Below are positions 58,522-59,252 of a stretch of DNA of 64,000 nt, piece after piece. Location of the stretch: assembly GCF_000026545.1 (NCBI RefSeq), contig NC_011601.1; one strand, given 5' to 3'. The stretch is from Escherichia coli O127:H6 str. E2348/69. GTDB taxonomy: Bacteria > Pseudomonadota > Gammaproteobacteria > Enterobacterales > Enterobacteriaceae. The position numbers were made by a program, and so were the translations under genes. Within the stretch, counting starts at the first letter, position 1, and every line of letters begins with the position of its first letter. The notes beneath the pieces are model-generated. The model was not told where the DNA came from. It did not search any database and saw nothing but the letters and a program-made list of their open reading frames with translations.

Positions 58522-59034
58522 TTAAGGCTTGCGAAAATAGTCGTCCATTATTTTCGTCAGCTCCGGACGTTCCCCGTCATCATTGATGGCAAAATCCAGA
58601 AAAAAAGCATCTGCTTGCGGCGTTCGGTTTTGCGCCATCAACCGGAAGGTGAGGGGGCCTGACCAGGTTTCGGATGGGCTGATGTGCTTATCAGGGCCGA
58701 AACTCTCCCATGCGTTGGGCGGTAATGTTTTGCACGCGGTGAGTTTTGGTATGTGGTATTGCAGCTCTGTTTTGTGCAGACATTCCCCGCCAGGAAATAC
58801 CAGGGTTTGTTGCTCATCATTAAAATGGGTTGCCGTGCTGAGCACCAGTGTTTTGAGCGGTCGCCCTTCCAGCGCGGCGGCAGTAGCCTTATGGTGTCCG
58901 TCGAGCAGAACGCAGAGATAGGAATCAGGGAGATACCAGGCCAGAGCGCGGGCGATTCCAGTTTTCGAGAGCAGACAAAAACCGGGCGGCTCCCTGTTCA
59001 TCCTCCGCAAAACCGCTGTAGACAAATTCCGCAC
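58522..59034 (-). CDS. Hypothetical protein (possible 3' portion of a fragmented gene); no recognisable domain
   Basis: 170-aa ORF (GTG start) beginning 1 bp after the cueR stop; its frame is open only 11 codons upstream of the start. Not recognised as any K-12 protein. Confidence 0.4.
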   Translation of the reverse strand: MRNLSTAVLRRMNREPPGFCLLSKTGIARALAWYLPDSYLCVLLDGHHKATAAALEGRPLKTLVLSTATHFNDEQQTLVFPGGECLHKTELQYHIPKLTACKTLPPNAWESFGPDKHISPSETWSGPLTFRLMAQNRTPQADAFFLDFAINDDGERPELTKIMDDYFRKP

Positions 59035-59045
59035 AGGTAGGGCAA

Positions 59046-59252
59046 TCAGCCTCGGACCAGAAACGTATTAACGGGACATCCTTGCCAGCAGAGCGAATGG
59101 ATAAGACCGTGCGAGTGCGGATCGTAAATCACACATTGACGCAGAAATCCTTTCCCGGACTTCACCGAAAAAATGACGCCCGCAGCGGTATTTTTCAGCA
59201 GACGTACTTCAGGTTTTCGAAAGGGGAAAAAGCATGGCCACTCCTTAGCCAA
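59046..59252 (-). CDS. Hypothetical small ORF (possible 5' fragment of the gene continued by 58522..59034)
   Basis: 68-aa ORF with TTG start, in a different frame from 58522..59034 and ending 12 bp upstream of it; weak start. Confidence 0.25.
   Translation of the reverse strand: MAKEWPCFFPFRKPEVRLLKNTAAGVIFSVKSGKGFLRQCVIYDPHSHGLIHSLCWQGCPVNTFLVRG

Follow-up and report, generated by a model that had tools for sequence, protein, structure and literature searches.

In the ParB/sulfiredoxin (Srx) fold, the N terminus of the core helix bears a motif that binds phosphate (GxxR, DGHHR, or GGCHR). The closest described systems for the gene family discussed here are found among proteins of this type, namely, ParB, Noc, KorB, PadC, sulfiredoxin, and two kinases of free serine, SerK and SbnI, yet none of them matches the family at the sequence level; unlike them, the family is predicted to have an extra N-terminal CPTC beta domain and a C-terminal alpha-solenoid, and it has neither a ParA partner nor an HTH. 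At the locus itself, the nearest description is a PGAP pseudogene of Escherichia coli O127:H6 strain E2348/69, BQ9544_RS02350 (“hypothetical protein, frameshifted”), which lies at 58522-59201 on the minus strand of the window (i.e., the whole 64,000-nucleotide stretch of E2348/69 DNA that was analyzed) and has annotated equivalents in strains A25, JA0072, and AR_0086. This is the same feature as the one that we describe. However, the PGAP entry says only “frameshifted” and gives neither the internal deletions, nor the true ATG at 59235, nor the 407-aa length of the parent. A literature search found no paper on a 407-aa gene adjacent to cueR, and the sole paper to name cueR and ybbJ along with pseudogenes deals with the SdiA regulon and has no bearing on the gene.

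In this region, three independent E2348/69 assemblies match the window at 100% identity, and the remnant is flanked on the plus strand by glsA, ybaT, and cueR. An earlier note on this DNA had drawn attention to two minus-strand open reading frames (ORFs), both of which are present in the ORF listing: one of 68 aa with a TTG start (59046..59252) and one of 170 aa with a GTG start (58522..59034). They do lie in different frames (59252 - 59034 = 218, not a multiple of 3), but they are separated by 11 nt (59035-59045) rather than by the 12 bp given. Nor does the 170-aa ORF “begin” 1 bp after the cueR stop; its TAA (58524-58522) abuts position 58521 with no spacer, and because the genes are convergent, the cueR-side end is its 3' end and not its beginning. 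The TTG and GTG are the codons reported, but neither is a genuine start, and neither has a ribosome-binding site; both are spurious, that is, the first start-like codons past upstream stops in whichever frame was open. Part of the 68-aa ORF and part of the 170-aa ORF lie outside the ancestral frame. The exact 68-aa and 170-aa products were not found among 15 billion proteins, neither ORF has a Pfam match, and NCBIfam and PADLOC scans likewise returned no family.

In total, the evidence set out below makes it nearly certain that the two ORFs are fragments of one inactivated gene of 1,224 nt (407 aa) between cueR and ybbJ, which we call gene X. The remnant is homologous to the intact 407-aa protein along its length, in three frames, as judged by tblastn and translation. 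When an intact homologue was searched against the region with tblastn, parent residues 190-290 (E = 1e-71) and 364-407 (E = 3e-28) were recovered, residues 2-51 were matched in another frame, and residues 52-93 were found by third-frame translation and alignment; at the protein level, what is left shares 96-100% identity with intact orthologues, and the correspondence is far beyond chance. Based on base-level alignment, the E2348/69 allele differs from intact alleles by two +1 insertions and by deletions of 287 nt and 225 nt, so that 512 nt of coding sequence in total is gone and 714 nt of the 1,224-nt parent gene is kept. The features, placed by base-level alignment of alleles, coordinate bookkeeping, and tblastn of the intact protein, are as follows.

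58522..59235, minus strand: whole pseudogene remnant, ancestral ATG to TAA (DNA alignment with the Nissle and WL297 alleles).
59241..59246, minus strand: Shine-Dalgarno sequence (AAGGAG), 5 nt ahead of the ancestral ATG (sequence, alignment).
59233..59235, minus strand: ancestral ATG (alignment, translations).
59223..59232, minus strand: lesion 1, a net gain of 1 nt (placed at 59232) in CTTTTTCCCC, the run that immediately follows the ATG (alignment).
59082..59231, minus strand: segment I, parent aa ~2-51 (FPFRKPEVRLLKNT...SLCWQ) (tblastn, translation).
59082..59083, minus strand: lesion 2, +1 A inside codon Q51, CAG to CAAG (alignment).
58955..59080, minus strand: segment II, parent aa 52-93 (DVPLIRFWSEA.CPTCAEFVYSGFAEDEQGAARFLSALENWNRP), third frame (three-frame translation, alignment, conservation).
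58954..59034, minus strand: spurious N terminus of the 170-aa ORF, GTG plus 27 codons (MRNLSTAVLRRMNREPPGFCLLSKTGI) (sequence, translation, tblastn).
58954..58955, minus strand: lesion 3, junction 58955/58954 of the 287-nt deletion, which shifts the frame (alignment).
58660..58953, minus strand: segment III, parent aa 190-287, with the invariant LLDGHHKATAAAL motif (tblastn at 96% identity, invariant columns).
58658..58659, minus strand: lesion 4, junction 58659/58658 of the in-frame 225-nt deletion (alignment).
58522..58656, minus strand: segment IV, parent aa 364-407 plus TAA (tblastn at 100% identity, ORF list).

The earlier note was right to favor one broken gene over two small ones: homologues are single intact ORFs at the same position (Nissle, WL297, Escherichia albertii, and an Enterobacteriaceae metagenome-assembled genome [MAG]), and PGAP already has a “frameshifted” pseudogene here. 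The details of the break are different from those proposed. The parent is not a protein of ~240 aa but one of 407 aa, as seen in the intact alleles, and a single frameshift near 59035-59067 gives way to four lesions, none of which (0/4) falls inside that interval. In addition, 59080-58955 codes ancestrally in a third frame that neither of the two ORFs reads correctly.

The damage starts at the beginning of the gene. The AAGGAG Shine-Dalgarno sequence is kept in intact alleles, where the position of the CTTTTTCCCC run holds 9 nt. In E2348/69, the frame opened by the ATG ends after 8 codons (MLFPLSKT*, TGA at 59211-59209). We propose that the extra nucleotide arose by +1 slippage in this short T/C run, and that the intact Shine-Dalgarno sequence and ATG would load ribosomes only for termination to follow after those 8 codons. 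Segment I is the genuinely ancestral part of the 68-aa ORF; its TTG (59252) precedes the real ATG and does not act as a start. The +1 A in codon 51 shifts the frame again, and past it the last 11 codons of the 68-aa ORF (GCPVNTFLVRG*) are out of frame. Segment II, with the conserved CPTC motif, follows in the third frame; the stretch MRNLSTAVLRRMNREPPGFCLLSKTGI at the head of the 170-aa ORF is segment II read out of frame, and no Shine-Dalgarno sequence precedes the GTG at 59034.

Lesion 3 removes parent nt 280-566 (aa 94-189). This 287-nt segment is flanked by imperfect direct repeats, CGCCCGTGGTCTGGC and CGCCCGCGCTCTGGC, of 15 nt each, with further similarity (AAAC[T/C]GGA) upstream of them. 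Loss between direct repeats is typical of repeat-mediated deletion, and slippage or recombination between the imperfect repeats is the likely mechanism. Lost with this segment are the motifs YPTDGNGHFFW and PxFLYPTQ, including G130 and F135, which are invariant in a 61-sequence alignment, as well as the near-invariant P127, D129, W136, P164, P169, Q171, R180, and Y184; in the structure model, this would be the N-terminal half of the conserved central domain. Lesion 4 removes parent nt 863-1087, replacing aa 288-363 with one fused Gly codon, and no microhomology was seen at its junction. This in-frame loss would take out part of the C-terminal helical domain, namely, helices 288-355, the first five predicted there. 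Segment IV then runs in the ancestral frame to a stop that abuts the cueR stop codon at 58521.

The four changes (+1, +1, -287, and -225) sum to a net frame change of zero. As a result, the ancestral ATG and the final stop share a frame, but the path between them is broken, and even a frame-repaired remnant would still be without its conserved core. In a promoter and terminator scan, counts were no higher than in shuffled controls, and no promoter-like site was seen upstream of the remnant. Judging from the sequence, we expect neither a functional product nor expression from the remnant.

The intact 1,224-nt gene (407 aa) is found in Nissle 1917 (EcN_Sk; WP_000492611.1, a protein that further strains share) and in WL297 (WP_000898613.1). 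These orthologues occupy the same position as the window copy, which differs from them by the missing 512 nt and the two +1 insertions. E. albertii has an intact gene at about 90% identity; there, as in Nissle, WL297, and the window, the stop codon of gene X directly touches that of cueR. The more distant Enterobacteriaceae MAG has an intact gene of 49% identity, also adjacent to and convergent with cueR. The order qmcA-ybbJ-X-cueR is kept in both E. albertii and the MAG, and this shared synteny argues that the gene is probably ancestral at the cueR-ybbJ locus rather than island cargo, as the earlier note had supposed. When the intact alleles of Nissle, WL297, and E. albertii were compared in pairs, dN/dS was 0.14-0.17, which shows purifying selection, and a search of 5.8 billion protein clusters returned 117 homologues, mostly of 400-460 aa. 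Based on these two observations, the parent is a real gene. Sources name it only “hypothetical” or “putative cytoplasmic.” The homologues come from E. coli, E. albertii, Salmonella enterica, Superficieibacter, unnamed Enterobacteriaceae, and Clostridia (e.g., Ruminococcus and Clostridium, at 22-35%). The S. enterica homologue (412 aa, ~55% identity, in a cluster of 2,700 sequences) is located between rihA and hscC (contig 6001-7239) and not beside cueR, so the gene appears to have moved or been separately acquired in Salmonella. No conserved partner gene was found around the Salmonella and Clostridia homologues, and thus no function can be assigned by association.

In E. coli, genes have been both gained and lost between cueR and ybbJ, which makes this interval a small hotspot. 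In E2348/69, the remainder of the interval (59324-61749) is a small variable block with the following ORFs.

59324-59530, minus strand: 68-aa ORF.
59527-59949, minus strand: 140-aa ORF, lipoprotein-like.
60003-61019, minus strand: 338-aa trimeric autotransporter with a YadA anchor (Pfam E = 7e-12).
61387-61749, plus strand: 120-aa ORF.

This block is absent from Nissle, and K-12 has neither the block nor gene X. The last ~28 nt of ybbJ (61852-61880, minus strand), and hence the C terminus of YbbJ, differ as well, with K-12 ending in ...HIRAVSS and this strain and Nissle in ...IIRAVIA. In K-12, where gene X is missing altogether, the cueR stop abuts the ybbJ stop, and the ybbJ end opens with TTAAG, just as the end of gene X does; the arrangement in K-12 may thus be a deletion product. 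An Rfam scan of 57900-61900 found nothing in the remnant region. Sub-threshold matches to naRNA4 (REP/BIME-type palindromic repeats) lie at 61735-61886, between the 120-aa ORF and ybbJ, and Nissle has a REP-like element just upstream of gene X. On the other side of cueR, the ybaT-cueR intergenic region holds what remains of the 3' end of a type I secretion adaptor gene of the HlyD family (58020-58117, plus strand): the final ~33 codons, interrupted by one frameshift. This scar is also present in K-12. With this scar in place, the region upstream of cueR consists of pseudogene sequence. In WL297, the HlyD-family gene is intact, and a giant SiiEA-like adhesin with its T1SS is directly upstream of cueR; these adhesin/T1SS genes overlap the cueR ATG by 4 nt.

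How widespread are these lesions? A megablast search of the region (791-nt query) against 5,426 complete E. coli genomes found the gene or its remnant in 965. In some genomes, the query is spread in three pieces across about 1,240-1,300 nt, showing that internal sequence is missing from the E2348/69 copy. The 287-nt segment is kept in 271 of the 965 carriers and missing from 694 (about 72%), the 225-nt segment is kept in 311, and the doubly deleted allele class accounts for about 654 genomes. Recurrence in other complete genomes was counted by means of exact 44-mers that cross the individual lesions: the +1 next to the ATG recurs in 80 genomes (91 with near-matches), the +A in the Q51 codon in 131, and the E2348-type 287-nt junction in 131, plus 18 near-matches.

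There are two types of 287-nt junction, as seen when the repeat region was compared (window 58954-58980; parent nt 255-300 versus 542-587). The type found in E2348/69 and JA0072 keeps the right-hand repeat copy, and the AR_0086 type, found in 545 genomes, keeps the left-hand copy; with the intact segment, these classes account for all carriers (271 + 149 + 545 = 965). The 225-nt junction is identical in E2348/69 and AR_0086 and thus co-occurs with both types of 287-nt junction; in JA0072, the E2348-type junction is present but the 225-nt segment is not deleted. No single, simply ordered succession of events can account for these combinations, and the junction mosaic implies that deletion at the repeat has recurred, that alleles have recombined, or both. 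JA0072 and AR_0086 are intermediate pseudogene forms, and the proteins P0023 and P0042 are ORF calls from other frameshift alleles. From these alleles, the cueR-adjacent gene is decaying in many E. coli lineages.

Would such a pattern call for more than neutral decay? The abundance of the doubly deleted class could reflect recent clonal spread, or the remnant could be tolerated or useful. The repeated loss (about 72% of carriers without the 287-nt segment, two crossover points, and further frameshifts) would point to selection, and one could propose that an undescribed parent family, anciently syntenic with cueR and ybbJ in Enterobacteriaceae and present in Clostridia too, has been destroyed repeatedly in E. 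coli by selection for loss. We consider this unlikely. The pseudogene is a case of ordinary gene decay, and one already flagged in public annotation.

A second alternative is that the 170-aa ORF, or a 159-aa form from the ATG at 59001, is still translated, such that the DGHH half and the last helices have some residual or new function. The frame is open, 143 of its 170 codons are ancestral, and the invariant DGHH is retained; moreover, the doubly deleted allele is widespread, and an equivalent ORF starting MNREPP... has been called on JA0072-like alleles (P0016, 77 member sequences). Set against these points are the absence of both a Shine-Dalgarno sequence before the GTG at 59034 and a promoter-like site upstream of the remnant, a start of 27 codons of out-of-frame nonsense, and a modeled product without half of the ParB/Srx-like domain and five C-terminal helices. 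PGAP treats all such alleles as pseudogenes, and the exact protein is missing from the 15-billion-sequence collection mentioned above. In our judgment, continued translation to a useful product is very improbable.

That the two ORFs are unrelated genuine small genes that are neighbors by chance is less credible still, to the point of being negligible. Both are open and on the same strand, but they align to consecutive parts of one 407-aa protein, which refutes their being separate genes; intact homologues are single ORFs; the real Shine-Dalgarno sequence and ATG (59246-59233) belong to another frame, leaving two non-ATG starts without a ribosome-binding site; and neither has a Pfam match. There is just as little to be said for sequencing or assembly error (the earlier note had raised an assembly indel), or for a functional gene that uses a programmed frameshift or a phase-variable switch: lesion 1 does lie in a short homopolymeric T/C run, but error is refuted by three identical E2348/69 assemblies and by the exact recurrence of each lesion in 80-131 other complete genomes, the runs of only 4-5 nt are not long enough to form a contingency locus, the 512 nt lost in the two deletions cannot be regained, intact alleles need no frameshift, and an intact downstream frame is absent.

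Taking the locus as the remains of a single 407-aa gene, we can ask what the parent protein might do. No family was found in Pfam, NCBIfam, or PADLOC for the intact protein or for any of 61 homologues, and PF02195 (ParBc) is matched by 0/61 members. Profile searches of PDB sequences gave chance matches only (e.g., troponin C, E > 0.05), and when the family profile was aligned to human sulfiredoxin with hhalign, which is a weak test here, no match was obtained (probability of 0.2). Structure models are more suggestive. The model resembles ParB/Srx-fold proteins (KorB, 7.5; SerK, 7.5; SbnI, 7.3; sulfiredoxin, 7.3 and 6.7; and PadC, 6.7), and when the central domain alone was modeled (pLDDT 89.9), the top 33 Foldseek matches in the PDB were all of the ParB/Srx fold. 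Among these are ParB-CDP (6sdk; probability 0.99) and Srx-ATP (3hy2; probability 0.97), with E values of only 0.02-0.5 over ~70 residues.

Invariant in the 61-sequence alignment are P54, T66 (of CPTC), G130, F135 (of YPTDGNGHFFW), and D207-G208-H209-H210 (LLDGHHKATAAAL), the last followed by K/R in homologues. In the model, DGHH is placed where strand 202-207 meets helix 209-218. By inspection, DGHH[K/R] resembles the DGHHR/GGCHR phosphate-binding motif. Together, the models suggest that the central domain of the parent, with its invariant DGHH, is a ParB/sulfiredoxin-like nucleotide-binding domain, within a predicted architecture of an N-terminal beta domain with CPTC, a divergent ParB/Srx-type domain, and a C-terminal alpha-solenoid. 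As to its biochemical nature, we infer that the parent probably acts in the manner of nucleotide-binding proteins of the ParB/Srx type, and we do not file it as a member of the superfamily. A recent survey of the ParB/Srx fold was seeded with PF02195; given that the parent family is unmatched by PF02195, that survey would have missed it. An assay for NTP binding is available in DRaCALA, as used in PMC12704722.

In terms of annotation, the 68-aa and 170-aa ORFs should not count as genes, and this feature is better described as what two deletions and two frameshifts have left of a 407-aa gene with its real start at 59235. The allele classes (intact, 287-nt deletion alone, both deletions, and two junction types) could serve as lineage markers in E. 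coli. Of modest side value, the intact parent emerges as an uncharacterized conserved protein with a probable divergent ParB/Srx-type domain.
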